A stretch of 64,000 nucleotides of DNA from Phoronis australis (GCA_002633005.1 NMRA01001015.1:424-64423), one strand, 5' to 3'; positions 4,501-62,790 are shown, counted from the first letter of the stretch. Program-made: numbers and translations. The notes: a model not told the origin generated them from the letters alone.

Positions 4501-4603
4501 ACTGGGATCTTTCAACGAAGGGGAGATCTTGAACATCATTGCTGAACAGTTCCCCAGCAAAACCTCCTACAAGGGAAAAGACCTTAAAAGATATAGAGGT
4601 TAA
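1520..4603 (+). CDS. Secreted coiled-coil/hydrophobic-hairpin protein, copy 1 (5'-partial; exons 1520-1657, 2321-3201, 4352-4603; signal-peptide exon upstream of window)
   Basis: AG/GT-bounded exons of 138, 881 and 252 nt join in frame (DAGLIRLALRGIKIG...LNL|GNVLSKGC...QLYN|YQVQALAVF...KRYRG*). Exon sizes are identical to copy 2, with about 10 aa differences. Confidence 0.88.
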
Positions 4604-14800: not shown

Positions 14801-15075
14801 GCTGGGCCAAGTGTAGGCTAATATTACGCAAGTCGTTCCCGAAAATAAATGTTGTAATGAGTTTCTTATTGTAAAGTTTTAGAATTTACAAAAGCAACGA
14901 ATTTTATTGTTTTGCATGCGCGCACCCCAAGGCCGGGGTGGCTCGGGGGGTTCGAACGAAACCCCCATTTGGCGAAGTGGGCAAAAAGGTCCGCCTCTGA
15001 GAGACAAAAAGTCCGGGAAAATGGGACAAAAGTCTACTAAACAAGCGTACCGCACTCCATAGTGGCGCTCCCGTT
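11842..15075. repeat. Direct duplication 11842-13574 / 13576-15075 joined at a single n (probable uncollapsed haplotypes)
   Basis: Near-identical non-coding sequence on both sides of n at 13575. Differs by scattered SNPs and an indel of about 240 bp. Confidence 0.8.
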
Positions 15076-34142: not shown

Positions 34143-34303
34143 CAGTGGCAGATTTAAGCGGGGCCAAGGGGGCCATGGTCCCCCTAAAACTCTCCAGATT
34201 CCATTTGGCACTGAGTTCGGGGGTTCGAACGTCTGACGGGCAAAATCCTGGCTAATACTCTGCCCTGCCTCCCCCACCTAACTCAAAATACTGTATCCGC
34301 CCG
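34143..34303. mobile_element. MITE (CAGTGGC(G/A)GAT family), 5-bp TSD TTTGG
   Basis: Similar to 45644-45801; TTTGG on both flanks. Confidence 0.75.
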
Positions 34304-35640: not shown

Positions 35641-37559
35641 TCGTACTCAGACCGAGGTCAAGTATCATTACTTTCATTTTATAAATCAACGGGCAACATC
35701 GAGTGAATTTACATACTCATCACTGTTTCAATTTCAATCACTGCTTTACAAAATACAGTTTTGAATCACTTGTGTAGTTGACTTAAGAAGTTACCTAGCT
35801 GTTTCCTTTGCAAATACCAAAAGTTTGAGATTGCAGTAGAAGTAATCAGAGACCAAACATTTTTCATTTGAAGTGATCCTCTAAATTGCAAAAACACGTT
35901 CATTCCAACAGTAGCTGGTAACTGGTATTTATCCGAGACTGAAACACGACTCATTGTGAGTGGGACGTGGGCGCCTGTGACTGACCGATAAGGCTACTCA
36001 GTGAATTTGAATTGAAAACTGCCGCCAAGTAATTATTCGCAGGATACGTGTTTTAACAACAATTAGTCTTACCAGTCCACTAACGTCCTGTTGTAACTCC
36101 TGTCAGAGACCGCCAGTCGCATTTTCAAAATCCAGGTCGCATTCATAACTCGTTGATTCCCTACGTGTCCGCTAGTGGGTATTTAATTTTCTTCGGGAAG
36201 TTTGTTTACACCGGCGTTTTCTAATTGGCTGGTCGAATGCTCAACAGGTAGCGCTTTACGTAAACAAACTAGCATGACTGATAGAGGAAGAGTAAGTGTA
36301 GAATTGTGGTCTGTTGTACAGGCAAATCGGTTCTTAAAATTCATGTTCAAGAAATGTGATTCAGAAAGCTGTGGTTGTGCTTTTTCGGAGTACATTTTTT
36401 TACTGTCGCTGACTTTCGTTTTTGTTGCTGTCCTGTGTTCACAGAGTATAAATAACACACGGTTTAAATCGGCCAGTTGTGTGTTCACTTTGTACCTGGC
36501 AGGTGCTTTTAGTCGAGCACGCGGCTATTAAACATTACTGCAGAATCGAAATATCTGCTGTCACGCCACTTGCATGACAAACATCGTTCATAGTCGGCCA
36601 TTTCTTTCTTTGTTGTGAAGCTACAAACCAATGACTGCTGAGGTTACATCAACCAGTGACAAAACGCATGCTGCTGATGCGTGTCCTCTACCTCCTAGCG
36701 GAAACACAGGGAACCAGCGAGGCGTTCATAAATGCTAGGTCACAAAATTTTCCCAGCATTTTTACGTTCCAAAATTATTTTTTAGATTTTCGAGAAAATG
36801 TATAGATTACGATCTTACCTGCGGCGTTAAATACGCACACATTTCAGGTCGCAAAATTCAGTTCTCACATGCAGGTACAGCGTTACTTCTTCAAGACCGC
36901 AGCGCAAGTTGCTGAAGTGAAAGTTGAATCAGTGCTATCTAACCGACACGTCCATTCGAGTAGCTAAGTTGTAATGTGAAAAGGGGGGAAATATTTGATG
37001 AAAAACTGTCATCGACTGATCCGTGAAACGTTACCCTAGCCCAATGATGTATTCGGATACACGGGAACAATTCACTGATCAGCCAGGCCACAACAAAAAT
37101 GTGGGGTTCATGTTGTTTACTTACTCAACAATTAGTTTTCCATGAAATAAAATCCGAGAAATAATTTCCGACTCTGTGCGGGTTTTCATCTAAACAAAGA
37201 CCCAGGACTTGACCTACCTGCGGTGTATTTAGATTTGTTACGGGATTCCCCCCGACATTAGCGAATCCCTGAGACTGTTTTTATTTCTTTTATTGTACAA
37301 CCCGGTGGTGAAAGAAGTCCGTGAGAGTGGACGANACCTTTTTGCCCAATTCGCCAAATTGGGGGGCTCGTTCGAGCAAAAGGTCCACATAGTTGGGAAT
37401 TCGAGCCCCCCCCCCATATTGAAGGCTGGGTGCGCGCATGTACTTTATCTATGTTCAGTTGAGAGTAGAGTTTTGTTCCGAAGGTATGAATGTAACGGAA
37501 TAAAGACTGTCAACAATGAAGTGTCGTGCGTTTAATCAATTATTTAGGATTGTCAATGT

Positions 37560-38810
37560 TCTCTTTCCATTTGTAGCTTTGGAGTGGTGGGCACGAATTA
37601 GTTCACGCGCTTGAATAGCCGGAGTAGGCCAGCACTATCCAGATGTTTAGAGATGACGTATCATGGCAGTAGATGACGCAATTTGGACCCAGAAATAAGA
37701 ATAGAAATGCCGTCACACTGAGTCCAAAACGTCAAAATGACGTCACGCTAAACATTCCAATACCGGCGCTGGCCAACAGCATATGACAGACGACTCGTAA
37801 TGTCGCGCACGTAGCCCCAGAAACAAGTAAAGGGGTTGGGAATTTACTGGCGACTCAAAAACATAGGCGGATTTTGGGGGGGGGGCAGGAGGCCCAGGCA
37901 CTCCCCCCCCTTGAAAGAGCTTGAAGAGTAAGGAAATATTGAGATCAGCAACTAGGACCGGTAGCGGATAAGGGGGGGGGGGACCTCAGACCTCGGGGAT
38001 TGTGTTCTCGCTTTTTTTAGTACATCGAAGGATATTCCGAACAGAAGGTTCACATCCCCGGCCCCGCAACCCTTCGGGCCTGTGCACATTACAATAGCGC
38101 TTTGCCCATTTCCCGAGGCAACATGTTGCCCCCCCCCTTATGGTGTCTTAGATCCGACACTGAAAAACCACTTTGCTGAAAGTAAAGACGTGACCGTCGT
38201 TTGGCGATTATTAGGGTTGCCATTTTCACGTTTGCTATACTTGCGATGACAGACAAGACGTACGTTTCGAAGCNCTTAGTACGATCGTCTGCCGGGACCG
38301 CTTGCGCGCCAACAACGAGACCGATCAGTGCCGCAGTGCGATATGAAAGATATTGTCGGGGATATTTCGTAATAAGGGTTTCTTACGTGAAAAATAAATA
38401 TGTTTTCCTGAACAAAGTATAGTACGTTGTTCGTGCATTAATAGAAATACCACTGTTTTGTGACGTTTTATCACGTGTTCTGCCGTGCCTGGTCCGAAAG
38501 TTTGTTCGGTTCATCCCAAACTGTTAGCCAATGTCGTCAAAGGTTGATTCTGCACTGTCCAATGTTCACGCGACGTGCAAGTCATCGGGAGTGCTGTTCC
38601 CGGTTAGTGCTTTTTTAACTTGATTTCGCAACAACCAAATAACGGTCAGATTTAAAGGAGTGGCTTATGTTTGCTAGCTATGAAGCTATCCGCTCAGAAG
38701 TGTAAAAACTCAGCTTGCATGTTTACGTTAGAAATTCCAGCGGTTGCATTTTGCGACTTGATACGAACTGGCAAAAATCTTAGCTCGCACATCCAAATAT
38801 CAGGTTCTTT
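37560..38810 (-). mobile_element. Diverged inverted partial copy of the 60585-62790 element, interrupted by MITE sequence at about 37861-38162
   Basis: 38170-38810 and 37560-37860 are reverse-complement similar to about 60620-61440 (e.g. GCTGAAAGTAAAGACGTGACCGTCGTTTGGCGATT vs AATCGCCAAACGACGGTCACGTCTTTACTTTCAG). Confidence 0.7.
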
Positions 38811-39767: not shown

Positions 39768-42700
39768 TCAGGTTTTGGCGACCTTCACCGAAATCGTTCC
39801 GTCGACGACAACTTCATGTGGAAGTTCCCGCATTCTGAAAACTTTCAAAGGTTTCGTCTTTATTGTAGTAACTTGAGGTGTCGTAGCTTGTGCTGTAATG
39901 TCCCCCCTATCCCCAATGAAGTACTCTTTTCCTAACGTGTCATACACAATGCTCCAATCTTGAAAGCTACCTTGGTCGTCAACATCCATGTTTTCCATGC
40001 CGGAGCTTTCCCTTTCTAAAACATGGAGACTTTGCTCCAGATGTTTGTCAAGCGACGCGGGTTGATAGAGGTCTTCATCATCTATGTATTCTAAATTGAC
40101 AACTGGTTTGGGTGAACGATTCCACATCCCACTGTCATGAAAACTCATGGGCTCCAACGGCAACTCCTGTGTTAAATCTTTGATACAATCGGCTCTATCT
40201 ACAGAAATTTTAGAATTTGTAGAGCTCCTAGAAGTAATAGCGGAGCCACTAAAATAACCTTTACTCGACATAGTTGATTCTTTACTCGGTCCCCTGTCAA
40301 TCTCTGTCGTCTTACAACACACATGCCCAACGTGGGAATCAACGACGCCGTGCTCGTCAGCAAATCGTCTACGAGTGACATTTTCTCTGTAACCACTGGC
40401 GGTAGGCTCACGTGATACATCCTTCCTAAGCCAATCAACACATTCTTTCACCGAGCCGACACGTAGTTGCCGACACTCAAGGATCTCGCCTATGCTATAC
40501 TCTTGACGGAGAGTAGCATAAACATCTCTAACTAAATTAAGTTCACAATGAGCTATTAACAGACCTACCGCCACATCCAAAATTACCTCTTTATTTACCG
40601 CGGGCCTTTCAAGCTTAAGGACACCGTCCCTTTCCGTGTAACCCATGAGATTAAATACCGAAACTGGGTCTTTAAGGACAGATTTTATGTAGATATTATA
40701 GTACCCACCATAAGTCTGAAAGAAAATTGAAACTATTCAAAACTGTTACCAATAAGGAAAGTGTGAAGCCGGCATTCTTACCAATGCCTTTTTACGTACT
40801 AGCGAGGACATCAATAATTTGCAACGACAGGAGACTAAACTTTGTTGGTGACCAGATTGCAATACAGGCAATGACAAAGGCGTTAGCAATTTGTGACTAC
40901 GCAAGGGTCGCTGGTGATCGTGTCCGCGAGGGAGCACATAATGCTATGTCTAATTAAAATGTGAATATGCAAATGAAGTAAAAGTTTACAAACAACCCCG
41001 GGTCTTCCGGTGTGCCGAAAACCATCCGAGAATAAGTTACCATTACAATCTCGCGAAAGTCTCCTTTTGCAAGATTAATTTTTTGCAAATGAGTATGGTA
41101 ATATTTCATCGTTACCTTAATGAAACAAGGCACAGATTTTACTATTTGTTTATTTCACTATCAAATATGGTACTACTTGGAATTATGTTTTTTATAAGTT
41201 AACACTTGTTTTTAAGTGTATCAGTTGCGGTGTTTTTTTAAACCCCAAGTTATTTACAAAATCTTTCTTTTCCTGATTATACTCGTACACGTAGTTCTCC
41301 AGCAAGTCACTAGGTAGCGCTTGATACAAATTTAAATATTCACAGTTTTAATGAGACACAGCATCTTTAACCACAACGATTTCTTCCTTCCTGACGGCTA
41401 GAACTGCTATATCAAAACCACATGGGGGGACGCGCAAAAGAACTGCCAAAATTATTTAAGTGCATGAAATCACCAACNTGTAACCCATGAGATTAAATAC
41501 CGAAACTGGGTCTTTAAGGACAGATTTTATGTAGATATTATAGTACCCACCATAAGTCTGAAAGAAAATTGAAACTATTCAAAACTGTTACCAATAAGGA
41601 AAGTGTGAAGCCGGCATTCTTACCAATGCCTTTTTACGTACTAGCGAGGACATCAATAATTTGCAACGACAGGAGACTAAACTTTGTTGGTGACCAGATT
41701 GCAATACAGGCAATGACAAAGGCGTTAGCAATTTGTGACTACGCAAGGGTCGCTGGTGATCGTGTCCGCGAGGGAGCACATAATGCTATGTCTAATTAAA
41801 TTGTGAATATGCAAATGAAGTAAAAGTTTACAAACAACCCCGGGTCTTCCGGTGTGCCGAAAACCATCCGAGAATAAGTTACCATTACAATCTCGCGAAA
41901 GTCTCCTTTTGCAAGATTAATTTTTTGCAAATGAGTATGGTAATATTTCATCGTTACCTTAATGAAACAAGGCACAGATTTTACTATTTGTTTATTTCAC
42001 TATCAAATATGGTACTACTTGGAATTATGTTTTTTATAAGTTAACACTTGTTTTTAAGTGTATCAGTTGCGGTGTTTTTTTAAACCCCAAGTTATTTACA
42101 AAATCTTTCTTTTCCTGATTATACTCGTACACGTAGTTCTCCAGCAAGTCACTAGGTAGCGCTTGATACAAATTTAAATATTCACAGTTTTAATGAGACA
42201 CAGCATCTTTAACCACAACGATTTCTTCCTTCCTGACGGCTAGAACTGCTATATCAAAACCACATGGGGGGACGCGCAAAAGAACTGCCAAAATTATTTA
42301 AGTGCATGAAATCACCAACTCCACACAAAAAACATAAGACAATCAGACAGTCAAACCTCCACAAACAGTGTTTGATAATAAGTGACTTGGTTCATCTCGT
42401 GTTACGAGCATTTATTGGTCGATACACACGTACCAAGAAGAATCGGGAAACGATCACAGCATTAGTCATCCATGGGCGCACACGGGGGGGGGGGCGGGGA
42501 GTCCACCAAAAAATCGGCGGAGAATGCACAATTCACAGCTTTGAGTGTACCTCGATTTTTTTTAGCAAAAGGTCCACATTCTCAAAAATTCGAGCCCCTC
42601 ATTGTTTAGGCTGGGTGCATATTTTCGATAGTGTTTAGTGTCAAAAGTCGTCGTCGATATTGCAGCGCGTTTTCCGTGATTCGAAGTATAATAAAGAATA

Positions 42701-44219
42701 GCGTTGCGTTTCAGGTGGTTGTGACAACTTGGTATTTGACCACACTGTGTCTTTGGCATTTTTTCTCGGGACGTCAGTGAACCGCGGATAGGGCACAGGT
42801 TTGTACAAGAAACTCGTGTGTTGGTGGACATGGCACACTGGCGAGGGGTACGTTCATACTTCACACTCTTGTCTGTGGAGTTAAGAAACATTCCATTTAA
42901 GGTCACTTTTTTCTATTGTCTCTGTTTTGGGATATTAAATTCACGGTTGTGATATGGCAGTGCTCTAAAGGAAGGCTTAATGTAGTTATTTGTCAAAACA
43001 AGGTAAATGGTAGTTTAACACACTTTCATGCAGTTCTTTTTTCACCGAGAACTGAAATGCTTCTTTTACAAACAGCAATTTTAGTCTTGTGAGCGCAGCA
43101 CGACTTTTCTCATAAACAATCAGCATTGCTCACGGTACTGTATACTCTCGATTAACAATGCGACACAGTTAAGATTAGAAAATCTATGACTAACTGCAAA
43201 AGTGATATACCATAATCCCATGATTACACCAGATGTCAAAGTCACTTGGAGCCTGTTTCTAGAAGAGACTATTGGTTTTTAACTTTAACTTAAAGTCAGA
43301 ACTCTGACTACAAATTTCCAAAAATTCTAGTTGATCTTTTGTGTTTTGCGTTCCTCGAAACTTTTCAGTAAATTGTCTTCTGTCAAGTCGAGCAGACAAT
43401 GGATTTTTGTTTTGTTTTTTTTTTTTTGTCTCCGAGTTGCAGACAGATTTTTTGACTATCTACCTTAGCCTGCTCTTGTGAAACAGGATTAACCATCTGT
43501 AGGCTTATTTTTAGCCGAAAGTCATAAGACTCTTTGAGAAACATGCCCCAGGTGGCGACAGCTGTCTCGCCCATTAGTCGGCTCAACTAGAACTACCAAA
43601 AAGCATATGTTAAGTTAGTAGAAGAAGGTATCAAAAGCCGAAATTGTCGCTTTGTGTTACTTTTAACGACCGACATTACCTTAAGACACCGCATCTGGTC
43701 ACACGTGATGGAGATAATCTGAGAGGATTTTCGTAAGATAATACTCTAGTGATGGCTTGCGAGGTAAATGTATGATGGCATAATTACTAAATGTGAGAGC
43801 ACTCAAAATAAAAACCATACAGTAGTTACAGGCCATAGGCCTATCTGCACTAATCATGTCTTGAAGAATAGTAATGTACCAAAACGTTGACAGCCTGGTT
43901 GACGACTTAAAATACTCACTTTAATGGTTTTGAACTCCGTCTTCCAAGGCCAAATAAGCAAATTCATAGCATAAGAAAAGAGCACCGCAAAAGCCGTAGA
44001 AAACTGCTTCAAGGACTCCCTGTCCTTATGTTGTTTAATTCGGACGAATTCTCGGCGAATCTCCTCAAATTTCCATTTGTCCTTGTCCTTACACGAAGAC
44101 AAGTATTGGGTAACTTTAGATCGGATTTTTTGCGGGACCTCTTCCGATGGGCCACTGTGATCGTAATTTCCAACTATAAGTTCATAGAGTTCCGCTCCAT
44201 AGCGGCTATTACCGCCCAT
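39768..44219 (-). CDS. SPATA2/Tamozhennic-like PUB-domain protein, about 415 aa (exons 44219-43920, 40715-39768)
   Basis: The phase-0 GT-AG join gives AFAVLFSYAMNLLIWPWKTEFKTIK|TYGGYYNIYIKSVL...NLMGYTE...VAVGLLIAHCEL, the SPATA2-family PUB signature. Acceptor at 44234-44235. The C-terminal end is uncertain because further exons are possible. Confidence 0.82.
40637..42319. repeat. Direct duplication with 842-bp offset across a single n at 41478 (assembly overlap)
   Basis: 40637-41477 is essentially identical to 41479-42319; identical ORFs are offset by 842. Confidence 0.9.
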
Positions 44220-45643
44220 AACAATGCTAACATCTGAAAATACAGGACGCTGTTATAAACAACAATTCATACATTAATGATGTATTTTGCCCTGTTTGAC
44301 TCGTTAAAAACGGAAATTGATTCAGGCCTTGCACTCTCATCGCCATAGGATTCCATTTCAATAAACAAGAACATGGCGACATCATCAGCGACTCAACAAA
44401 AAGCCTCAGAGTTAACTGGGGCTGACCAAACCCTTAAATTGCTAATTCGCCGGCGCAACTTCATTTTCTGACAATGTCCTGAGCGGCTATCGGAAACAGA
44501 ATCCTGCTACGGTAGAGTATTTCGAAACCCGAATTGTGACAAAATAGGCCCAATCCCGCGATTTTCATTAGCTAGCTAAGGGCGAACGGAAGTATATTGT
44601 ATCGGGGTTTTGATGTACGCTCTATTCCTGGTTATCTCTTCCTAGTTCTATCGATTTTTTACAAACAAACGCATTAAACTTTTACTCAATTTAAACGATA
44701 CAATAAAAGTGTCCGAGCACACCCGCCAATGAACGTACACAGAACATCTTTCGCCTGATATCCACCGTACATAGTCCGAAAAGGTCGAGTGAGACCAAAG
44801 GTAGTAAGGGCTCATGATCTTGCAACATTTGACTTCTTCAGAGTTACTTCAGTTAAGTTACCAAGGAAAGCTTCTGACGTTTGTTTGTTTTGTTTTTTTT
44901 TTATTTTGTAAAACTACGTTAAGCAGGCCTTTGGCAATTCACCGTATAATTTCTGACTTTAATCGAGATCAATGTATGTTGGTTCAGACCAAAATGACCG
45001 ACGCGAATTAACTAACTGACATATGTTACGGGCAACAACCGTCTATGCAAAAGCAAATGGGTCTTATTTATGGAGCCTAAAAAATAGAAATAGTCCTTAT
45101 TTCCCTGAGCGACATCCCCACTCGCCATCCCCGGTACTGTTGGCAATTTTTTTAGCCTGAGTCAGTCTCCCGGGCCACTAATTTCCCTGTTTTTGACCAC
45201 GAGTAACAGAACAGCTGGCGGCATAGTATTCGGCAGGTAGTTCAGTTTACACTGCCCGGCGGTACTTTTTTAGATTTGAAAACTAAGCTTAGGTATCGCA
45301 GACCACGACTGTCTTCAACTATTAAATGCCATTGCGTGAACTCAGTTTGCTGTACTTGAGCAGAAGGTACAGTGATCCCGAGGCGACATTACGAGGTAGT
45401 CACAGGTTCAAGTGACTTTTACGCGAGTAGTCCACCAGAGTCACGTGCCGGGCATTAGGCCTATATATTTTGTCTTTTGTAGATCCCTACGCCGGCGAAG
45501 CCGCACTGTCATCCCGCCGACGCAGTAGGCTAGATCTATAAATGCAGGCCTAAATGAAAGTATATATAAAATATATGATCAAATCAGTCATCAGTGCCTA
45601 AACTTCACTAAGTCCATGAATATATCCAGTCATGATCAGTATT

Positions 45644-45801
45644 CAGTGGCGGATTTAGAGGGGGTCAAGGGGGCCATCCCCCCTAAAATTCTCCCAGATT
45701 CCATGAGGCAGTTGGGGGCTGCGAATGTCTGACGGGCAAAATCCTGGCTAATACTCTGCTGTGGCCCCCTTAACCGTCTCAAAATCCTGGATCCGCCCCT
45801 G
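45644..45801. mobile_element. MITE (TIR CAGTGGCGGAT), 5-bp TSD GTATT
   Basis: CAGTGGCGGAT...ATCCGCCCCTG with GTATT on both sides. Confidence 0.88.
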
Positions 45802-46030: not shown

Positions 46031-47073
46031 TGTCGTGAACGTGTATTCTCTCGTTGTGTGGCGTCATGTGGTGTTGTCTTTGTTCGTCTCTGTGTGTGTG
46101 GTGTTGACATAGTGAGCCAGTGATAGGTCACGTGACTCTGGGCACGAGGGGGAATCGGGGAGTCTATGAAAGGGTGTGGACCTAGATAGACGATCTGGAG
46201 AGTGTAACTAGAAGCGCTCTTACAAGTGTGACACTGATGGCAAGCCCGGACAAGAAGTTGGGTAAGTTGGCTGTCTCTGAGGAATTATAGGCCGCGTTAC
46301 TATAATTGGCGTAGTCGCCGGCAGGATTCAAGAGTGCCAACTTATAAACCGTGTGTGAGTTTTTCGCGCCGGTACCCTTCCGGGAGTGGGAGGGTAATTT
46401 GTATACCAAGTGCGTTTTCGCGTGTAGCTAGCCTATATATTACTGTCGTTACTGGTTATTTGTTGTAATCTTGTTGTGAGTAAATACTGCATGTCCATTT
46501 GATTCCGTGCGCGGTTCTCAGTTCCTATTTGATATTGGTCCTAGGAAATATTAAACTTGCGGGTTTGATATTAGTTGATAATTATGGCTGCCGGGAAGGT
46601 GTCTATTAATTTCTGTCCCGCGGGAGAGTTGTTAGAAATTCCAGGGGTTTCCGAGGAAATTGCTAAAGATATTTTGAAGTTCCGGTCATCCACTCAAGTA
46701 TTACCGGAAAATGTTAATTATATTAATTCAGGGTGGAAAGTCACTAAGGCGGTCCGTAATACTATTGATTTCAGCGCGAGTCCAGAGGACGAATTTCACA
46801 AAATTATCGAGGTATGTGAGGAATTCGAGAAACATGCTTTTAAGCCTGCAAAAACAAAGAGTGCAGGTCATACTCCCTCTTCGGCAAAGATGGCCGCAAA
46901 ATTCCCGGGAAGCACAAATGCAAGTTTGGAGTGTAAACATGATATCAGATCACATGCTCCCAGTAAGCTAGTTTTTTCGGGAAAAAGGGGAACATGGGAG
47001 GACTTTCAATGGAAGTTCCAGAGTTTGGCACGTGATTATTTTTGGCCGACACATAAGTGTCGCACTGAGTTGG
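46031..47073 (+). mobile_element. Partial second Gypsy copy: LTR (46031-46304), PBS with 3-bp insertion, intact gag 5' end (ATG 46584); truncated at n 47074
   Basis: Homologous to 47748-48787 but with a different 5' flank (AAACAT vs GCGGAT) and LTR polymorphisms. Confidence 0.85.
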
Positions 47074-47747
47074 NCTCAGATTTTGCATGCACCCCGTCCT
47101 ACATCAGGGCTTGGAATGACCAATGACAAAAAACACGGAAACCTTTACGGGCCCAAAACATGCGCGCTACCTAGCCTTGAAATGGTCAATGTGAACTTTA
47201 CGACTAAAAAAAAGGAAAAAAAAAAGTTACCAGCAGCAGTAGCATGAGTCTGTGTCGTTTTAGCTCGTCCGTCCACTTCCAACCCACACATTTTTGGCTG
47301 CAAAGCCGTAGTGTTTGTCACCGCGGTTTACAATCACACGAGCACCATTGAAAATCCCACCACGCTATCCCAGATGCCCCGGCAATGTTGACAATTTACG
47401 TTCCTCCGAAACATAAAGAGCAACTGCTGCATTTCGAGGTGAACGTCGTCTGCAATGGCGCTGTAAGAAAGGAATTTGCCGCGGAAATTTTATATCAAAT
47501 CCGATTTTTTTATACGGAAATATAATAAAATGCGCGGACAGAACATTTTTAAAAAGCGGAAATCCGCGTTTCCGCGGAAAATTCCTAGCCTTGCTACATG
47601 TTGATACAGGTTTCACGGTGAGTTGATGAGCAGAACTACCCTGGCTGTGTGCAATTTCGGGGTATACGGAAGAAAAACACACAGTGATACCTAGCTGTAC
47701 TTTACTTTGACGATAGTCTTCATACAGCTAGCTGAACAGTGGCGGAT

Positions 47748-48023
47748 TGTCGTGAACGTGTATTCTCTCGTTGTGTGGCGTCATGTGGTGTTGTCTTTGT
47801 TTGTCTCTGTGTGTGTGGTGTTGACATAGTGAGCCAGTGATAGGTCACGTGACTCTGGGCACGAGGGGAAAAATCGGGGAGTCTATGAGAGGGTGTGGTG
47901 AAAGATAGACGCTCTGGATAGTGTAACTAGAGGCGCTCTCAAAAGTGTGACACTGATGGCAAGTCCGGACAAGAAGTTAGGTAAGTTGGCTGTATCTGAT
48001 GAATTATAGACAGCGTTACTATA
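47748..48023 (+). repeat. 5' LTR (TGTCGTGAAC...CGTTACTATA)
   Basis: 276 bp, about 8 mismatches to the 3' LTR by eye; followed by the PBS. Confidence 0.95.
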
Positions 48024-48025
48024 AT

Positions 48026-48045
48026 TGGCGTAGTCGGCAGGATTC
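48026..48045 (+). promoter_or_regulatory. Primer binding site, tRNA-Ser
   Basis: TGGCGTAGTCGGCAGGATTC is complementary to the 3' end of eukaryotic tRNA-Ser(AGA/TGA) (GAATCCTGCCGACTACGCCA), 2 nt after the LTR. Confidence 0.92.
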
Positions 48046-48299
48046 AAGAGCACCAACTTATAAACCGTGTGTGAGTTTTTCGCGCCGGTACCCTCCCGGG
48101 AGTGGGAGGGTAATTTGTATACCAAGTGCGTTTTCTCGTGTAGCCAGCCTATATATTACTGTCGTTACTGGTTATTTGTTGTAATCTTGTAGTGAGTAAA
48201 TACTGCATGTCCATTTGATTCCGTGCGCGGTTCTCAGTTCCTATTTGATATTGGTCCTAGGAAATATTAAACTTGCGGGTTTGATATTAGTTGACAATT

Positions 48300-49713
48300 A
48301 TGGCTGCCGGAAAAGTGTCTATTAATTTGTCCCGCGGGAGAGTTGTTAGAAATTCCAGGGGTTTCCGAGGAAATTGCTAAAGATATTTTGAAGTTCCGGT
48401 CATCCACTCAAGTATTACCGGAAAATGTTAATTATATTAATTCAGGGTGGAAAGTCACTAAGGCGGTCCGTAATACTATTGATTTCAGCGCGAGTCCAGA
48501 GGACGAATTTCACAAAATTATCGAGGTATGTGAGGAATTCGAGAAACATGCTTTTAAGCCTGCAAAAACAAAGAGTGCAGGTCATACTCCCTCTTCGGCA
48601 AAGATGGCCGCAAAATTCCCGGGAAGCACAAATGCAAGTTTGGAGTGTAAACATGATATCAGATCACATGCTCCCAGTAAGCTAGTTTTTTCGGGAAAAA
48701 GGGGAACATGGGAGGACTTTCAATGGAAGTTCCAGAGTTTGGCACGTGATTACTTTTGGCCGACACATAAGTGTCGCACTGAGTTGGGGTTGTGCCTTGA
48801 GGGGGATGCAGCTCGGTGGTTTTCTAATTATATAAAAGAATATCCGGGGGCAGAGTTTGATGACATCATCGAGATAATGTCTAATAGATTTGGATCCGAG
48901 GTGGAGAGTATTGAGGTACATCAGCTTCGTTTCCATTCAGCATTTCAAGAGAGGGATGAGTCTCTTGAACAGTGGGCAGATCGCCTTACTAGTTTGTTCC
49001 TCAAGGCTTTTCCGGACCCCAGGCCTTCGGATAAATCACAGTCAGTACTGAGGTTTTGTCTGGGAATGCGCGATAAAGATGTGGCCCAATTCACAATTAA
49101 TAATAAACCAGCGACTGTTGTTGACGCATTGACATCGACTCGTTGGTTTTCGACCACTAAAAACCTAATGCATGCATCGCCCAGGTCAGTGACATTTCGT
49201 CGCGAATCTTATGCCGACGATGTATTCGAGAATGTCGACGTGAGACAGGTTAATCGTAAGCCTAGTCTTAAATTTACCCCGCGAGATACTATTGAGTCGC
49301 GGTTGGACGCCCTTGAGGGGAAATTCGCGTCCCTTGAATCATCTAGTCTTGAAATGCAATCGGATATTGTTTCCCTGAAATCAGACAATTCTCAAATTCA
49401 CAAGAAAATAGACCGCATGAAGACTGAAATGAATAGCAATTTCGGTGACATAACAAATAACTTCAATAAACTATTTTCAATACTACAAACTCAGTCGCCG
49501 AGACGACCGCAGGAGTCGAGGGAACAGCGGTTATCGCCGAATTCTCCGAGGTCTGACATTCGTCAGCGAAATTCACCAGGTTCTTCACCTAAATGTCCAT
49601 ATACACCGAGGTGTTTTAAGTGTAATCAACTGGGGCATTATCAGAGTAATTGTCCATCGACGTCGGCACGTAGGGCTAGTGTGGAAAGCAATGAGGGTGA
49701 TTTAAATGCCTAA
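48300..49713 (+). CDS. gag: gag (N-terminal HhH motif, capsid-like region, coiled coil, CCHC zinc knuckle); 2-bp deletion near 48328
   Basis: CFKCNQLGHYQSNC knuckle; LEGDAARWF and QERDESLEQWADRL capsid motifs. The ATG at 48300 is out of frame because of a 2-bp deletion relative to the 46584 copy. Confidence 0.9.
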
Positions 49714-49762
49714 GGACTGGGCGATCGGGTCTTACCCCAGTCCGTAGTAAGTGCCAAGACCC
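49701..49762 (+). promoter_or_regulatory. -1 ribosomal frameshift signal (T TTA AAT plus pseudoknot)
   Basis: Slippery heptamer 49701-49707; stem 1 49714-49721/49736-49743; stem 2 49727-49733/49756-49762; pol is in the -1 frame. Confidence 0.8.
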
Positions 49763-52700
49763 TCCTGATGTTGCGAAATTAGTTGGCCTCGTGGGGTGCA
49801 TCAAGAAATTTGTTAAAAAGCTTAGTCGGGACTCCAATTCATCGGAAACGGATTGTTCCTTTGAGAGAAAAACTTCTGCCGATTATCATAAATCTGTTTC
49901 AGAGTTAAGTAGTCCTACAAATTCTAACGTAACGGAGAGTGTATCTTCAGACAAGATGTGTGGGGAAACGGTTCCGGTTATTGTTGAGGAGGTGACGAAC
50001 AGTTATGAGATTGTGATAGATTCATTACACATGAATTCACAAAGTAACTCTCCATCTGTGTCGGGAGAGCTGGTTCCATCCGGCTCTGTTCCGGTCAAGA
50101 TGTCAGTCGAGGCTGATAGTTTCTTCGATTCCCTAGAGACTGTTGGAGTAAAGAAGACTGCAACGGGTAATATGTATTATATACCGATTAGAATTAATGG
50201 CACTGTGGTTGATGCCATTATTGATTGCGGAGCTGACAGCACCATAATCTCGCACCGGTTGTACAATTTGTTAGACAACGTTGCTTTTTCACATAACATT
50301 AATGTACAAACGGCTGGAGAAGATATGGCTATGCTAGGTTTTCGAACGCAACCAGTAACTCTCACGTTTCAGCATCAGACCTGTGATGTTTCATTAGTCG
50401 TGGCTAATATTAACGATGAGTGTTTATTAGGTCTGGATGTTATGAAACGGCTAAATGCAGTTATTAATATGAAAAAAGATTGCATCACGTTGGATAACAA
50501 AACTTCAGAAATGAAGTATGGTTTCCCTGCGAAGCTATTACCTACTGTAGTACTGGCTAGGTCTGTTAGTATACCTCCAAATACTGTGAAACGGGTTAAG
50601 TGTGTAAAAAACCCAAAATTTCAGTCAACAGTTTTGGTTGAGGCCGATTTGATGAATCTGGATCCGCGATTATCAGTACCTCGCGCTTTGTATGATTTTG
50701 AGGATGAGCCAGCTTTGATGATTTTCAACACTTCGGAGCATCAAGTTAGGCTGGTGGCTGGGTCATCACTGGGTTCAGTACAAAATGTGGATGAATGGAC
50801 TGAGGTTCATTTGAATTCCGTTACTCCCTTGGATGAAGATGATGTTTCGGCTTGAAAAGTTGTTGATCAGTCAGATGTCAATAAGTATCAGATTAGCTTA
50901 CCATCCAAACTTCAGGGCCTTTTTGACAAATCTAAAGTTTCACTTTCGGATGACGAGTCGTCAAAATTACATACATCGATTACTTTCTGATTATACCGAT
51001 GTATTTGCAGCCGATGATATGGATTTGGGCAATTTTACAGCCGTAGAGCATGTAATTGATACGGGAGATGCTCAACCAATAAAAATGGCTATGCGGCGTA
51101 CTCCGAGTTGTTTCATTTCGGAGGAGGAGGGTCATCTAGACAAAATGCTCAAGGCTGGCGTGATTACTCCGTCTACGAGTGAGTGGGCTGCGGCTCCGGT
51201 TTTAATTAGAAAGAAAACTGACGGTTCAGTCCGGTATTGCATCGACTACAGGAAGCTAAATCGGGTAACCAAAAAGGACTCCTGGCCTTTACCATTGATA
51301 GACGAGTGCATTGATTTACTTGCGGGTAATGTGTGGTTTAGCAAATTAGATGCTAATTCGGCGTACTGGCAAATCAAAATACGCGAAGAAGACCGTAAGA
51401 AAACGGCTTTCATAACTAAATATGGCCTTTTCGACTTCAAGTCAATGCCTTTTGGGCTCTGTGGGGCTCCCTCAACCTTTTCACGGGCAATGAGTTTAGT
51501 TCTGCGGGGGCTAAACTGGCACACAGTTCTTGCTTTTCTCGACGACATTTTGGTCTTGGGTTCTAGTTTTGACGTGCATTTAAACAACCTGCGGGAGGTT
51601 TTTGATCGTTTTAGGAAATATCAAATGAGATTGAAACCCAAGAAATGTTCATTGTTTCAAAAACGCGTTGATTTCCTAGGACGATGGGTGGGCCCTGAGG
51701 GGTTAGAAATGGGTCAAGATAATATTGACAAGGTAAAAACCTGGCCTGTTCCAAGAAGTAAAAAACAGTGTCAGAGTTTTCTTGGTTTCGTAAATTATCA
51801 TCGTCTTTTTATCAGGGATTTTGCTCGCATTGCGATGCCACTTTACGAAGTCACTGGGTCCTCTCCCTTTGCGTGGGTGGAGAAGCAGCAATTAGCTTTT
51901 GAAGAGCTTAAGGTGGCTTTAACATCGCCACCCGTGCTGTCGTTACCCAATAATTATGATGAATTTATCCTCGATTGTGACGCTTCTGATCTTGCGATTG
52001 GTGCTTGTTTGTCACAAGTTCAGAATGGCGAGGAAAAGGTTATCTCGTATTCGAGTTTTGCGTTGGTGGATGAGCAAAAACGGTATTGCATGACTAGGAA
52101 GGAATTATTGGCTGTGGTCCGTTTTACTCATTAATATCGACATTATTTGCTGGGTCGGAATTTCCGCGTGCGGACGGATCATAACAGCTTAACATGGTTG
52201 TTGAATTTTAAATCTTCAAGTGGTCAGATAGCGCGTTGGATTCTGCAGCTGCAACAATTTCCGGGTATGAAGATAGAGTATCGGCCGGGTATAAAGCATA
52301 TTAATGCAGATGCACTTTCCCGTATTTCTGTAGATATTTGAAGCAACTATAAACTGGGAGTTTCTCCAGAACTGCTTCCCTGCGGGGGTTGTGCAAAATG
52401 TCAAAAAGCTCATAATGACTGGTATAGTTTTTCACAAAAAGTTGATGATTCAACATCTCTTGGTAGCGTGGTGGTCACAAAAGTAGATAAATGTATTGGT
52501 ACAGGGAGACAGGTAATTACGGCTTCTGTTGGAAGTCAAGAGTCGGATTTGTCTCGGTATATACCTGATGATCTAGCAGAGCAGGAATTTGGATTGGCTG
52601 TGGTTAATCCAAATCTTTCAAATTCGAGTGATAGTGTTTTTGTGGAATCGGAATTTTGCGTTGTCAACAACAACTCGACCAGCTCAAACTCCTGCGGGTA

Positions 52701-54784
52701 TCTTAATGAAGCTGAGTTGCCAATTAAACAAAAAGCTGATGTGGATTTGACTTTTGTTTTCAACTGGTTAAAGGAACAGNATAGTGTTTTTGTGGAATCG
52801 GAATTTTGCGTTGTCAACAACAACTCGACCAGCTCAAACTCCTGCGGGTATCTTAATGAAGCTGAGTTGCCAACTAAACAAAAAAAAGCTGATGTGGATT
52901 TGACTTCTGTTTTCAACTAGTTAAAGGAACAGGTAGTTCCTACAGAGCACGAATTGTTCCTATCTAGTCCGTCAGCAAAGTTTTACTGGATAAACAAAGA
53001 TCGGTTTTATATTCAAGGTGATGTATTGTTCTGAAAATCATACCATCGGCGGCTCATCAGGGTATTTTCCGGACTAAGTCAAAAATAAGGTTAAAATATT
53101 TCTGGTATGGTTTGACGAAAGATGTCAAACAATTCATAGGTTCCTGTGGGGCCTGCAATCAGAACAAGCAGGGCAGTAGACGTGGTCGATTTCCGATGAT
53201 TCGTTATCATGCTGGTGCGCCGATGGGACGGGTTCATGTATTTTCTGGGGCCATTACCTGTGACAAACCGCGGTAATGAACATGTTTTAATGATCGTTGA
53301 TCAGTTCACCAAATGGGTCGAGTGCATTCCATTACCTTCCCAAACGGCTGAGGTCACGGCCCATGCGGCGGTCAACGAGTTCTTCACACGGTTCGGATAT
53401 CCGTTTCATATTTTTTCAGATCAGGGAAGGAATTTCGATAGCAAACTTTTTAAGTCACTGTGCGACCTCCTACACATAAATAAGTCAAGAACAACTCCAT
53501 ACGAATGGACAGGTAGAGCGATTTAATCGCACGCTCATGGACACGGTGAGATCTCACGTGAGGGATTATCAAGACGACTGGGATATGTTTATTCCGCAAA
53601 TTGCTGGGGCGATTCGCTCATCAGTCAACCGACATACTGGNGCCTGCAATCAGAACAAGCAGGGCAGTAGACGTGGTCGATTTCCGATGATTCGTTATCA
53701 TGCTGGTGCGCCGATGGAACGGGTTCATGTGGATTTTCTGGGGCTATTACCTGTGACAAACCGCGGTAATGAACATGTTTTAATGATCGTTGATCAGTTC
53801 ACCAAATGGGTCGAGTGCATTCCGTTACCTTCCCAAACGGCCGAGGTCACGGCCCATGCGGCGGTCAACGAGTTCTTCACACGGTTCGGATATCCGTTTC
53901 ATATTTTTTCAGATCAGGGAAGGAATTTCGACAGCAAACTTTTTAAGTCACTGTGCGACCTCCTGCACATAAATAAGTCAAGAACAACTCCATACCGTCC
54001 GTCTGCGAATGGACAGGTAGAGCGATTTAATCACACGCTCATGGACGCGGTGAGATGTTACGTGAGTGATTATCAGGACGACTGGGATATGTTTATTCCG
54101 CAAATTGCTGGGGCGATTCGCTCATCAGTCAACCGACATACTGGTTTCTCTCCAAATATGGTGATGTTGGGACGAGAAACAAATCAGCCGATAGATCTTA
54201 TATTTCCGGTGGTCACGTCAGTTAATAATCAACCATATGGTGATTATGTTGGGAGACTTCAAGGGGCAATAAGCAAGGCTCATGAAACGGCGCGTCAATT
54301 TCTTCAAACTAGTCAATCTTTGATGAAACGGGACTATGATCTTTCAGTGTTTAAGCGCGTGTTTCATCTGGGTGATCTTGTGTATATCTTTGACTCGGCA
54401 ACCGTGAAAGGAAAATGTAAAAAATTATCTCCTCCGTGGAAGGGGCCGGGCATTATTACGGAAGTCTTAACTCCAGCGTTGTACCGGGTAAGAGTTAAGA
54501 ATTCAGTTTCGGTAGTTCATCATGACAGAATAAAATTATGTACAACGCAATATACAGAATTGCCTGATTGGTTAAAAAGAGTCATTTCTGCTGGAAATGT
54601 CATCAACACCAATACCGGGAATAGGGATCCGGAACTTTTTTGCATTTGTCGCAAGCCCGATCACGGAGGGCTCATGATTCAGTGCGACTCTTGTGATGAC
54701 TGGCTTCATGGGGAATGTGTTGATATTACCGCTACTGATGCAAGGGAAATTGACACTTATTGGTGTCCTCGGTGTAAGCCATAA
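49701..54784 (+). pseudogene. pol: pol: aspartic protease, RT, RNase H, integrase with C-terminal PHD finger; disrupted
   Basis: IIDCGADSTII (PR); YCIDYRKLN, MPFGL and FLDDIL (RT); LDCDASD and RKELLAVV (RH); VHVDFLG, SDQGRNF and NGQVERFN (IN); WKGPG; PHD. Lesions: stops at 50853 and 52132, a 4-bp duplication near 50970, frameshifts or deletion near 52335 and 53040, and n-join duplications at 52780 and 53641. Confidence 0.95.
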
Positions 54785-54828
54785 CATCATTATGATGTAA
54801 TAATTACATAACCATGTTTTTGTTGTAG

Positions 54829-56664
54829 ATGTCCAGTTCGCCTGTTTAGATGTTCGTTTGCGAACGAACCCAGACCTTCCAATAGCGACCTTCAACGAAG
54901 GTGAGTCCGGGGCTGTTGAGGTAGTCCCTATGGATGCAGAGTCAGTAGTGGGTAAGTCAACTGAATGCCAAGGTGAAGTGGATTGTACAGTTGCGGCTGT
55001 AGACGAAACACAGTCATCGATTAAAACGCCAGTTAGACCTGCGGGAATCTCGGGGTCATCTAGTCAGTGTTCGGTAAGTTCTGCGGGTCTTCCATCTCCC
55101 TCCTTTTCGTGCCCGTTATGTCCTTTTACGGGGTCGGAGGCCGTGTTTCGGGCACACGCCCTATTACATCTTCCGAAAATATTCAATATATCATCTATTC
55201 ACATGCTCGCGTTTCCGGGGTTACAGCGTCGTCGCGCTTGGGCGATTCTTCGCCTGTTTTCTTACATAGAGGGCAGGGAATTGGTGTCATACAGCGATTT
55301 GATGGATATGGGGGGGTTGATCGTGCGCAGTTTGCCATGTATACCATCTGTGTTGTTGGTTGACGAGGTGTCGATGTTCTTAATATGCCGTGTGATGGGA
55401 TGGCCGATACCATCTCGTTTTATCGCACCGGATGGTCGCTTAGAGAATCCAGCATGTGTGTTCCTCTTGTATATTATTTTGGGGATGATGGCACGCGTGT
55501 CGGAGGCCCTTCGCTCTGAGTGGATCCGTTGGTGTGATGAAGAGTCCGCATCTACCGAAATGCAGGAAGTAACATTTATTCCTTTAGCGGCGCCACTGCA
55601 TCAGACATCTACTGGGGTAGACGTTGCGTCGACTCCTACGAACGGACCGGTGAATGCACCATAAGCAACGGGGCCTGTGACTACATCGTTCACCACTTTT
55701 GCTCAGGTAGTTGCAGAGGGTTCGTCTAGGCCTACTGCGATTGGAACGACTGTTGCGGCCGAGTCTATTTCAACTCTGCGCAAAGTAAAAGCGGATCCTC
55801 AGGCTTTGGACTCGCATTTCCACATTGATAGGTTATCTGTGGCCCATCGTGAGAAAACGGGCGTACGGACAGTGGACAGATGGCTGTCAGTACCAGAACT
55901 CCTGGCGGCAGATATGTGCAGGCAACCGACGGTGCCAGTGACCCTCTGTGGGGGGATCATGGTTTTTTGCGATGCACATGACTTTCGCGTTGACCTGGGT
56001 GCCTATTTGAAACAGCTTCCTACGGGATGGAAGGCAGTCGTAGGCATCCATCCTAAACAGCTCTCCAAATTGGATTTCCGTGCGTGGGAAGTTATGTTGG
56101 GGTTGCTGTCAGAACCAAAGGTAGCAGGGCTTGGGGAAGTCGGATTGGAACAAGGTAGGGACGAGGTATGGCAGGCGCGTGCTTTAGAAGATTTGATAAT
56201 TCATTTTTGTCGGCTGGAAAAGAAAAAAACTGAATATCGTAGGAAGGTGCTAGTGATTCACCTGCGAGGGGCCAAGCATGATGTTCATTATGATTGGGGT
56301 TTTGCTACACTCCGTGAGATTTTGCGGCGTCATGCTCCGCGGAGTATTCGTATGCACTTATACACCTTTGTTGGAAATACAAATGTCGTGCGCGACTTCT
56401 GTGAGGAATTTCCTTCGTGTTATTTTGGCTTTTCAGGTTTGGTATGCAGGTACAACCGCTGGCAGGTTGCAGCGTTACGCGCGGTTCCTCTGCAGCGGTT
56501 GTTGTTGGAAACCGATTCCCCTCACCTTCCGGTAAATACTAAACCTAATTACCCTCAGTTTATAGGGGAGGTCGCGGAAGTTGTGGCAAAGCTAAGGGGG
56601 GGTGTCCACTAAGGTGGTTCTGGACGAGAGCGTTCGTAACGGACGAAGGTTATACCGATTATAG
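54829..56664 (+). pseudogene. Retrotransposon ORF3: C2H2 zinc finger plus TatD-family nuclease (about 620 aa reconstructed; in-frame stop at 55662, +1 G at about 56590)
   Basis: ORFs 54858-55664 and 55677-56612 share a frame. TatD motifs DSHFH, VGIHPK, GLGEVGLE, VIHLR, YFGFSG, LLLETDSP. Removing one G from the poly-G restores the typical end LRGVSTKVVLDESVRNGRRLYRL*. Zinc finger CPLCPFTGSEAVFRAHALLH. Confidence 0.9.
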
Positions 56665-57185: not shown

Positions 57186-57198
57186 AGGAAGGGGGGAG
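57186..57198 (+). promoter_or_regulatory. Polypurine tract
   Basis: AGGAAGGGGGGAG immediately before the 3' LTR. Confidence 0.9.
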
Positions 57199-57474
57199 TG
57201 TCGTGAACGAGTATTCTCTCGTTGTGTGGCGTCATGTGGTGTTGTCTTTGTTCGTCTCTGTGTGTGTGGTGTTGACATAGTGAGCCAGTGATAGGTCACG
57301 TGACTCTGGGCACGAGGGGAAAAATCGGGGAGTCTATGAGAAGGTGTGGTGAAAGATAGACGCTCTGGAGAGTGAAACTAGAGGCGCTCTCAAAAGTGTG
57401 ACACTGATGGCAAGTCCGGACAAGAAGTTAGGTAAGTTGGCTGTATCTGATGAATTATAGGCCACGTTACTATA
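57199..57474 (+). repeat. 3' LTR
   Basis: 276-bp match to 47748-48023, followed by the TSD GGAT. Confidence 0.95.
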
Positions 57475-57641
57475 GGATTTAGGCATGGGGGCCATGCCCC
57501 CTCCACTAAAATTCTCCCAGATTCCATTTGGCAGTTAGGTAGTGCGAATGTCAGACAGGCAAAATCCTGGCTAATAAAAACTCTGCCCTGGCACCCCAAA
57601 CTCAAAATCCTGGATCAACCCCTGAAGAACACAACAATTAT

Positions 57642-60584: not shown

Positions 60585-62790
60585 CAGGGCTCGACATAAC
60601 GAGCTGCAGGTCGCATTTGCGACCTGAAATTTGGAAATGCGAGCTGAGATTTTTGTCAGCTCGTATCAAGTCGCAAAATGCGACCTGGAATTTCCAACGA
60701 ATGCGAGCTGAGTTTTTACACTTCTCAACAGATATCTGGCACATACAAAGCAGCTCTTGTTAATCCGACCGTTATTTGGTCGTTGCCAAATCCAAGTTCA
60801 AAACAACACTAACGAGAACAGCCCTCCCGATGACTTGTAAGCAAGTCGCGTGAACATGGGATATGCAGAATCGATCTTCGACGCGTTTCATTGGCTAACA
60901 CTTTCGGCCACTTTTGTAAATTCCCGGATTCGCCGAAGAAAGTTTCGGGCCACTGCTTAACACGTGATAAAACTTCACAAAACAACGGTGTTTCTATTAA
61001 TTCTTAAGCGATCAACTTACCAAACTTTGTGGTGGGCAAAAATGTTTAGTTTTTCATATAAGATGTCCTTATTACATGTACCAAATATCCACGACAAAAT
61101 CCCTGATATCGCACTGCGGCACCGTCAGTTAGCGCGCAAGCGGTCCCGGCAGACAATCGTGACTTAGACTGAGATGTGCTTCTCCTTTTAATCGTATTAA
61201 GACAGCCAAAGTGAAAATTACAACCTTATTAATCGCCAAACGACGGTCACGTCTTTACTTTCAGTTGCCAAGAAATTCTCAAACCCCCTTACTTGTTTCT
61301 GGGGCTACGTGCGCGAAATATGATTTGTCTTTCACACGTACGTTGCCAACGTAAAGTGTAGGCCTACTCCAGCGATGAGCATGTGCGTGAACTCACGCGT
61401 GGGCACCACTTCAAAGAACAGCGACAGCCCTAAATGAAAGAGTATGTCGGCTTGGCTCTGGTTTATTTGAAAATAAACTCAGATTCCCAGCGGTTATAAA
61501 AGACCCGATGTACCGGGACCGATATACATTGTAACCCCGAGAACTGACGTTTTCCTGTTCCGATGTTTCCCGAGGTCTATGTTCTGTAAATCCTGTATTC
61601 TATGCCCGTAGCCAGTTATTGCAACTAAACTGGCACTAGATGCGAAATTGTGGTTCAAGTTAGCGAACTTTTCATTCTTCTCTTTATACCCCCCGCCAAC
61701 TTTTCGCTCCCCAAACCACCGTCGCCGTAAAATGTTCAGACTCACCTATAGAAACAACCTTGTTCCGGCTGAAGCGGACAGTTAAAAACAAAATCGTTCC
61801 GGGTGGCTAAAAAGGGTACAATGTAGGTGGTTACGATATCCAGAAGTCACCCCTACGAGATGGAGTTTGCCTCGCAAAATCGTATTATTATAACGTTTCT
61901 TACCATTGCAGCATTTTAATATCTTATTACCGCAAACACTGAGGTTAACGACTATACTCACGCACAAGCTTACCCCCTACCTTTAAAGTGTTTCATAATT
62001 AGCGCTCACTGATCTATTAAAAGTCCCCCCTTAAATTTTGAGAATTTCCAGTGAAGCGCCCACAGTTCAAGCTAGCGCCCATCATAGCGTACTACAAACG
62101 ACCGCGTGTGATTTAAAATTGTCACGCAGCTTATATGGTGTGTCTCTTTCATTTTACACAACTTCAGTTTTCATAAACGTCTTTTCACAATATGTAAAAA
62201 CCAAATCCCGGCTTTGTTTTATACCTCGGAAAGAAAGTTAACACTAGTGACTTGCGTGTCGTTTTGTGACTGACCTATTTTTCCCGTACTTGGAAGGTAT
62301 TGCGGAGCAAACTCGCCATTACCCGAGTTAGTTTGAATCGTTAACGACTTTGATGACAGCCAGTAGCAGGCCAGATCTAAAAATATCCCGGATACTTTTT
62401 CAAGGGACATTTTCTCCCTTTTCACATCGCAAATTTAGCTACTCGAATGCAAAAGTCAGTTAGAGAGCACTGATCATTCAACTTTCACGTCGGCAACTTG
62501 CCTTGCGCTCTAGAGTCTTTCAATGGAGGTCGTGAAGAACAGTAAGGCCGTAACCTACATGAATGAAGTCAATATTGAGATCCGAAATTTGTGAGTATTT
62601 AACGCTGCAGGTAAGAACATAATCTAAACATTTTCTCGATGATCTAAAAAATCTATTTTGGCGCGTAAAAATGGCGGAAAAATTTTGCGACCTGGCATTT
62701 AGGAATGCGAGCTGGATTTTGAAAATGCGACCTGGGATTTTGGCTAGGTCGCAAAATGCGACCTGGCGATTTTAATAGCGTCGAGCCCTG
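60585..62790. mobile_element. 2.2-kb non-autonomous DNA transposon, TIR CAGGGCTCGAC, 5-bp TSD TAACC (hAT-like termini)
   Basis: CAGGGCTCGAC...GTCGAGCCCTG with TAACC on both sides. Subterminal TGCGA(C/G)CTG repeats at both ends. No transposase ORF. Confidence 0.88.

Follow-up and report, generated by a model that had tools for sequence, protein, structure and literature searches.

A finger-helical-TatD gene in the env position of a Gypsy retrotransposon lineage

In errantiviruses and retroviruses, the env gene lies between pol and the polypurine tract (PPT) and is expressed from a spliced subgenomic message with a donor near the 5′ end. According to the accessible part of PMC5408684, the third open reading frames (ORF3s) of LTR retrotransposons are typically expressed from spliced messages, and the same source describes, in the Juno and Vesta elements of bdelloid rotifers, an ORF3 that encodes a DEDDy exonuclease. 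Among TatD proteins, TATDN1 and TATDN3 have been reported to act as 3′-5′ exonucleases on single-stranded DNA (ssDNA) and as AP endonucleases on double-stranded DNA (dsDNA) (PMC10085689, accessible part), and TATDN2 has been found to degrade the RNA strand of R-loops (PMC10711561, accessible part). Here we describe a Gypsy lineage in which a TatD gene is carried as lineage-wide cargo in the env slot, directly behind an integrase that ends in a PHD finger. The original prediction, made from a single copy, had proposed such a lineage, and a profile search, other elements and selection on the gene now support it.

The window, that is, the whole stretch of 64,000 nucleotides from Phoronis australis that was analysed (GCA_002633005.1 NMRA01001015.1:424-64423), contains on its plus strand an element that is a Gypsy retrotransposon as judged by its structure. 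Its two LTRs of 276 bp (47748-48023 and 57199-57474) are identical at 268 of 276 positions and are enclosed by the target-site duplication (TSD) GGAT (47744-47747 and 57475-57478), the accessible part of PMC12440569 giving 4-6 bp as the rule for Ty3/Gypsy. A primer-binding-site-like stretch, assigned from its position and sequence, starts with TGG 2 nt behind the 5′ LTR (48026-48045), and the PPT lies at 57186-57198, so that paired LTRs, a 4-bp TSD, a PBS-like site and a PPT, the structural criteria of Ty3/Gypsy elements, are all present. The LTRs begin with TG, and their 3′ termini read TA (48020-48023, 57471-57474), not the usual CA; the boundary is confirmed by RNA reads from other insertions, which leave the LTR at the same base and exit into several different flanks at 57199 and 57474. 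Between the LTRs, the Pfam domains follow the Gypsy order of gag knuckle, protease, reverse transcriptase (RT), RNase H, integrase and C-terminal PHD. The gag gene (48295-49713), with a zinc knuckle, Retrotrans_gag and a helix-hairpin-helix-like N-terminus, is broken near its start, the pol pieces (49701-53526) run from protease through RT and RNase H to the start of the integrase and are interrupted by several frame breaks and, at single Ns, by two short duplications that look like assembly products, and the integrase core with its C-terminal PHD finger occupies 53480-54784 (rve E 5.5e-13, PHD E 7.3e-11).

None of the listed N positions falls between 53641 and 57715, and thus the integrase core, PHD, ORF3, PPT, 3′ LTR and flank are physically on one unbroken piece; two joins at single Ns (52780, 53641) separate this piece from gag and the 5′ LTR. 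Near-identical duplications flank single Ns at 52631-52932 and 53147-54144, and also at 40637-41778 and 11842-14949. As these resemble assembly overlaps, some of the pol damage may be artefactual. Another 5′ end belonging to this LTR family (46031-47073), comprising LTR, PBS, leader and gag start behind another left flank and cut at an N, is 96.7% identical to 47746-48787 and is either a second insertion or an assembly artefact.

The helix-hairpin-helix at the start of Gag, an unusual DNA-binding add-on for this protein, matches Pfam HHH_3 in the window (46584-46700 and 48300-48420) and in two of the related elements described below, L084 (7693-7880) and L089 (3-150). The E values are 2e-11 in L089, 2e-6 in L084 and 6.8e-6 in the window, the last being for the gag start of the neighbouring copy and just under the cut-off, and the model is absent from the gag frames of L082 and L087 at E 0.001. 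The element was inserted into a very high-copy short repeat (47735-47747 and 57475-57621; also 34214-34302 and 45710-45798), whose depth exceeds that of the element by a factor of hundreds to thousands. It lies upstream of, and in the opposite direction to, a SPATA2-like gene of two exons on the minus strand (39768-40736 and 43854-44252; Pfam SPATA2_PUB-like). Elsewhere in the window, a unit of ~6.5-6.9 kb is tandemly duplicated in 1-11400 and contains a long exon of coiled-coil-like character (2287-3393, 9179-10108) for which Pfam gave nothing above the cut-off, and an inverted-repeat chain 22-25 kb apart (36777-38805 and 60622-62652) consists of two opposite copies of a 2-kb repeat.

Reanalysis of the sequence bore out the proposed third ORF between the integrase stop and the PPT, inside the LTR pair and the TSD. 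ORF3 runs in a single frame from 54804 to a TAA at 55662-55664, the premature stop that had been predicted, and then extends, still in frame, to 56612; its final helix (..NGRRLYRL, stop 56662-56664) sits in the next frame. The predicted frame shift is therefore real, but we place it in a G run at 56596-56602, slightly to the right of the ~56590 first proposed. The 5′ part (54829-55664) contains a C2H2-like finger (~55110-55169), a helical domain extending to ~55523 and the beginning of a linker, and the 3′ part (55665-56664) contains the remainder of the linker and the TatD domain, from ~55809.

The predicted full TatD domain, with its named motifs, is also found. Pfam TatD_DNase matches ORF3 at E 3.2e-26 (92.7 bits against a cut-off of 27) and is its sole Pfam match, with no DEDD-superfamily exonuclease domain found in ORF3 by Pfam, and the motifs DSHFH (the N-terminal HxH), GIHP, GEVGLE, IHLR and ETDSP are all present. 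Sequence matches of the TatD part include eight solved TatD sequences, and an AlphaFold model of this part of the window copy (mean pLDDT 89) has only TatD proteins as its best Foldseek matches. The six presumed metal ligands (HxH, Glu, His, His and Asp) were assigned by motif after the accessible part of PMC10085689, not from a solved structure. The window copy keeps five of the six, with Tyr, as had been noted, at the codon (56361-56363) where its relatives have the His of the HxF motif; in addition, its GLD motif has Glu where all 150 relatives listed have Asp. This copy is probably dead.

Other copies within the species were studied in contigs of sample S1 (runs X1, X3 and X4) and in three RNA runs (X6, X7 and X8), which were chosen by species label and of each of which ~18-19% was used. 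In the S1 contigs, the stop codon and the Tyr codon read differently from the window in X1, X3 and X4, as does the G run in X1 and X4, which agrees with the decay of the window copy that had been suspected. Of the four X8 RNA reads that cross the ORF3 stop, two differ from the window and two match it; both forms therefore exist, and, given the two matching reads, the broken form exists beyond one assembly. Contig depth, which is not copy number, is similar over ORF3 and over the integrase end (13-31 against 15-19 in X4, 53-270 against 103-141 in X3 and 4-11 against 8-13 in X1). Together with the S1 differences and the other flanks into which LTR reads exit, this similar depth indicates that ORF3 is a normal part of this LTR family and that the window copy has decayed.

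Beyond this element, a TatD gene stands directly behind integrase-PHD in eight other elements, with 60-68% identity to the window in RT, where present, and 28-36% in TatD. The clearest example is L002, a metagenome contig with an open pol of 1409 aa (protease, RT, RNase H, integrase and PHD; RT 62% identical to the window) that is followed by an open ORF of 588 aa ending in a TatD domain with all ligands kept. It was found in a metagenome scan that covered 15 of 64 parts and from which the best 80 of 535 matches were taken, and it is the only one of the 81 loci listed that the window pol matches. Five further metagenome loci were inspected, of which L009 is of the ORF3 type and four look bacterial. 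Prokaryote genome records, scanned with a motif specific to the subfamily, yielded 17 candidates, 11 matches and 10 loci; one of these loci is a 19-residue bacterial match, and the other nine (L082-L090) come from a single bin filed as Sedimenticola sp. In seven of the nine, the TatD gene is immediately preceded by integrase-PHD sequence, with full domain sets seen in L082, L087 and L089; L083 begins inside ORF3, and L085 has only a scrap of RT beyond a gap. ORF3 is open in one frame of 803-1101 aa in L084, L086, L087, L088 and L089, while in L082 its N-tail is interrupted by a stop and in L090 only 310 aa of the TatD frame are open. Since the TatD ORF occupies the same place in L002 and in seven of the nine bin loci, the possibility of a one-off capture, which would have undone the prediction, is refuted.

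The nine loci share one record set and are not independent hosts. We rejected a bacterial origin for them because gag and the series from protease to integrase-PHD are present, and we infer that the contigs are animal host DNA in a bacterial bin. NCBI lists the ORF3 products of these contigs as a bacterial "TatD family hydrolase". The ends of the L084 and L089 contigs overlap (by 88 and 91 bp), as expected of circles with one LTR.

L009 presents a different case. It encodes a finger-helical-TatD protein of 593 aa in a single frame (1912-3693), and no pol match was found in the 1.9 kb upstream of the gene; hence, genes of this type also exist without an element in view. In a quick tree, L009 branches outside the pol-linked clade, and it could be either a relative from the host or a copy left stranded. 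A protein search returned 426 clusters (at 50% identity) with E ≤1e-10, not all of which need belong to this subfamily, and the relatives discussed here are drawn from the best 150 of these 426. Thirty clusters were looked up: four are animal (Argopecten, Pecten, Ptychodera and Lytechinus, that is, scallops, a hemichordate and a sea urchin) and known as proteins alone, and four belong to the Sedimenticola bin. The Argopecten cluster has five members within 90% identity, as expected of a multi-copy element, and NCBI labels one relative "putative deoxyribonuclease TATDN2", which is a database name. A search with relative P0014 for sequences named TATDN2 returned six proteins, none so named. No relevant match was found in viral contigs (one locus with a partial match, none of 15 candidates), and no fusion to pol was found among longer homologues of 780-2225 aa, although this is weak evidence, as a single protein was returned.

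The N-terminal part of ORF3 matches no Pfam or NCBIfam model, but the C2H2-like finger of the original prediction fits a C-C-H-H pattern that is shared by 59 of the 71 long relatives listed. A finger-plus-helical domain is present in 67 of 71 relatives of at least 480 aa among the matches listed, and in none of the reversed-sequence controls. The window copy matches this profile but was itself part of the iterated profile, and L002 is without the helical domain. In the model of relative P0029, most of the finger-helical domain has a pLDDT above 90 and is joined to TatD by a disordered linker; for this fold, modelled jointly with TatD, the Atlas gave no named family at a score of at least 0.9 and no TM of 0.5. 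The N-tail and the linker vary freely in length around the fixed finger and nuclease (~590-1100 aa in the loci).

The arrangement of splice signals suggests how such a protein could be made. Each LTR contains one GTAAGT donor site, with an ATG 25 nt upstream that is open into it in phase 1; in the 5′ LTR, this gives a predicted leader exon for the ORF3 message at 47956-47980, with the ATG at 47956 and the donor at 47981. An acceptor (54805-54828, a pyrimidine run with AG at 54827-54828) lies 44 nt behind the pol stop and requires phase 1 to enter ORF3, which matches the phase of the LTR donor. Two X8 reads, below the threshold for listing a joint and from one of the three RNA runs, join the equivalent place of the LTR to 54828. 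X8 also covers 54812-55944 at a depth of 1-4.5, in the orientation usually indicative of sense RNA. In X6 and X7, RNA molecules end at 54831 (10 in X6, where the depth alongside is 18, and 5 in X7, where it is 10). Most X6 and X7 reads at the start of ORF3 exit the element at an internal donor-like site, GTGAGT, at 54901-54906 (40 and 23 reads), and the remaining ORF3 is nearly uncovered. These reads use 54829-54901 as a 72-nt exon and continue into one sequence outside the mapped stretch; they probably reflect a copy of the element exonised into another transcript. A loose acceptor rule, set after viewing the sequences, finds a site at most 160 nt behind the pol stop in seven of seven elements, against 21 of 70 background windows, and the LTRs of L084 and L089 carry donor-like sites that precede the PBS by 49 and 14 nt, respectively. 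The evidence for env-like spliced expression is thus suggestive and thin. Considering it together with the matching phases, we regard it as quite probable that ORF3 would be made from a spliced LTR-to-ORF3 message with its start codon in the LTR. With a message of its own, ORF3 would likely be dosed apart from Gag-Pol.

The nuclease part of the gene appears to be maintained by selection. Among the 150 relatives listed, 124 cover all six ligand columns (26 do not), and all six ligands are intact in 107 of these 124, with a ligand lost in 17; the His residues of HxH are found in 122 and 118 of the 150, the remainder being mostly gaps from truncated records. Between the TatD domains of L083 and L084 (266 codons), dS is 0.22 and dN 0.031, giving a dN/dS of 0.14 (Fisher p 2e-12), so that neutral evolution of the ORF, which would have told against the prediction, is refuted in favour of purifying selection. 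In the same pair, the ratio is 0.30 in the linker, 0.19 in the finger-helical domain (not significant, p 0.08) and 0.66 in the N-tail (p 0.25). The dN/dS rests on this pair, the others all being saturated or nearly so at synonymous sites while their proteins remain 29-62% identical. Integrase and TatD distances agree over seven elements (Mantel rho 0.64, p 0.034, with seven rows and kin that share traits), and both trees recover the pairs L082/L084 and L086/L087. This correlation, a small test among kin, fits joint inheritance. In a quick tree with no verified TATDN1, TATDN2 or TATDN3, 31 ORF3-type rows stand apart from 22 prokaryote-like rows (SH-aLRT 99).

What the protein does for the element can be addressed with graded confidence. 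The conserved ligands and the selection make it highly plausible that intact relatives encode a working Group II TatD nuclease. The reading that we favour, if only somewhat above even, is that the element carries a selected, lineage-wide finger-helical-TatD gene, likely expressed from an LTR-started spliced message, and that its product is a predicted two-metal nuclease that would trim the ssDNA ends of the element's own cDNA and the RNA of RNA-DNA hybrids. By analogy with the activities of TATDN1, TATDN3 and TATDN2, we tentatively propose, a little short of an even call, that the enzyme would act on intermediates of the element's own reverse transcription, to which the finger and helical domain would dock it. 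The elements already encode an RNase H, which counts against the need for a second hybrid-removing enzyme.

The same chemistry could serve another purpose. ORF3 might act in trans as a counter-defence nuclease against host detection or silencing, with cytosolic cDNA, R-loops or small-RNA-bound nascent transcripts as its targets, a reading that we consider rather unlikely. Like other accessory genes, ORF3 appears to have its own spliced message and is not fused to Pol, its finger and nuclease are fixed, with a long N-tail and linker free to vary around them, and the same elements have further parts that bind chromatin or DNA (a PHD on integrase and a helix-hairpin-helix on Gag); the removal of R-loop RNA by TATDN2 (PMC10711561, accessible part) would fit as well. 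Positive selection, however, is not seen in the one pair tested (ratios 0.14-0.66), and the chemistry overlaps that of the trimming model, from which this reading differs only in purpose. In its widest form, which we hold to be doubtful, this reading would describe an old Gypsy clade of molluscs, echinoderms and hemichordates equipped with a kit of helix-hairpin-helix Gag, PHD integrase and a spliced zinc-finger TatD that destroys the R-loops or stray cDNA used by the host for detection and silencing.

A repair function is less probable still. Here, ORF3 would supply AP-endonuclease or 3′-end cleaning activity for integration gaps or damaged cDNA bases, docking on chromatin together with the integrase-PHD. 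Integration is normally completed by host repair enzymes, and basic NLS-like runs occur in only two of nine translated pieces, both of which weigh against it, although ORF3 is always behind a PHD-bearing integrase in the loci seen, and AP sites in dsDNA are cut not only by TATDN1 and TATDN3 but also by three E. coli paralogues (PMC10085689, accessible part). The present data do not separate the trimming, counter-defence and repair readings. Finally, it is very improbable that the gene is a cellular TATDN2-like invertebrate gene, captured once or several times and kept only as a passenger or nucleic-acid-binding scaffold, as L009 without pol, the NCBI name of one relative and the missing ligand in 17 of the 124 relatives might suggest, given the low dN/dS between two element copies, the ligands kept in the other 107 of the matches listed and the agreement of TatD and integrase distances.

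Accessory genes can reveal the limiting step of a retroelement. Retention of a nuclease in the env slot, over a divergence that has taken RT to ~60% identity, suggests a need not otherwise served in marine invertebrates, either for handling cDNA or RNA-DNA hybrids or for evading host sensing. The 426 clusters, even if not all need be of this subfamily, also offer many natural Group II TatD domains that look soluble; human TATDN2 was insoluble and not assayable in one study (PMC10085689, accessible part). For annotation, the multi-copy "TATDN2" genes of scallop and sea urchin and the "TatD hydrolases" of one bacterial bin are probably transposon genes, and if the counter-defence kit described above is real, the same would hold for many "TATDN2-like" and "TatD hydrolase" entries from invertebrates and metagenomes. 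In the accessible part of a study of the giant squid Hox cluster, a predicted TATDN2 appears, without comment, among transposon-like ORFs (PMC6962438). We found no description of TatD in a retrotransposon in the open literature searched, as judged from the papers listed; Repbase, GyDB, subscription journals and supplements may hold one. "TatD" is absent from the accessible main text of PMC5408684, PMC13524379, PMC12440569 and PMC6238403, and the accessible part of PMC12709183 gave no match to the terms searched.

Compared with known systems, ORF3 shares features with each of three. Like the env of errantiviruses and retroviruses, it lies between pol and the PPT and may be expressed from a spliced message, for which the evidence is suggestive, but its donor is inside the LTR, upstream of the PBS. 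The reading of ORF3 as an env glycoprotein was rejected in view of its nuclease fold and of the hydropathy of seven relatives, in which the top 19-residue values are 0.92-1.37; in the window copy, the hydropathy scan of the N-terminal part peaks at 1.83, inside the helical domain. With Group II TatDs (TATDN2, TATDN3, YcfH and YjjV), it shares the Pfam family, the fold, the HxH motif and further presumed ligands, as far as the accessible parts of PMC10085689 and PMC10711561 describe them, and the model of P0029 superimposes on structure 6l25 with a Z of 29.5 and an rmsd of 2.6 over 246 residues. In contrast to that group, however, it is one long exon within a retrotransposon and has an N-terminal C2H2-like and helical domain. 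It also scores only 82 against the NCBIfam cut-off of 206 for TIGR00010, and in the quick tree, the ORF3 TatDs form a clade separate from the sampled prokaryote-like TatDs.

The closest precedent is the DEDDy-exonuclease ORF3 of Juno and Vesta. As described in the accessible part of PMC5408684, it is also a third ORF that encodes a non-env enzyme with intact catalytic residues, which here are those of the intact relatives, and with 3′-5′ nuclease chemistry, which is here predicted. The two differ in their unrelated folds, a TatD TIM barrel here and DEDD there, in the fusion of the TatD ORF3 to a finger and helical domain behind integrase-PHD, and in selection, which is purifying here, whereas that source, in its accessible part, gives no significant departure from neutrality within the genome for Juno and Vesta. 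The TatD ORF3 is thus a real feature of the whole lineage that seems not to have been described in the open literature searched, and it belongs to a kind of element, with an enzyme in ORF3, that is known from rotifers.
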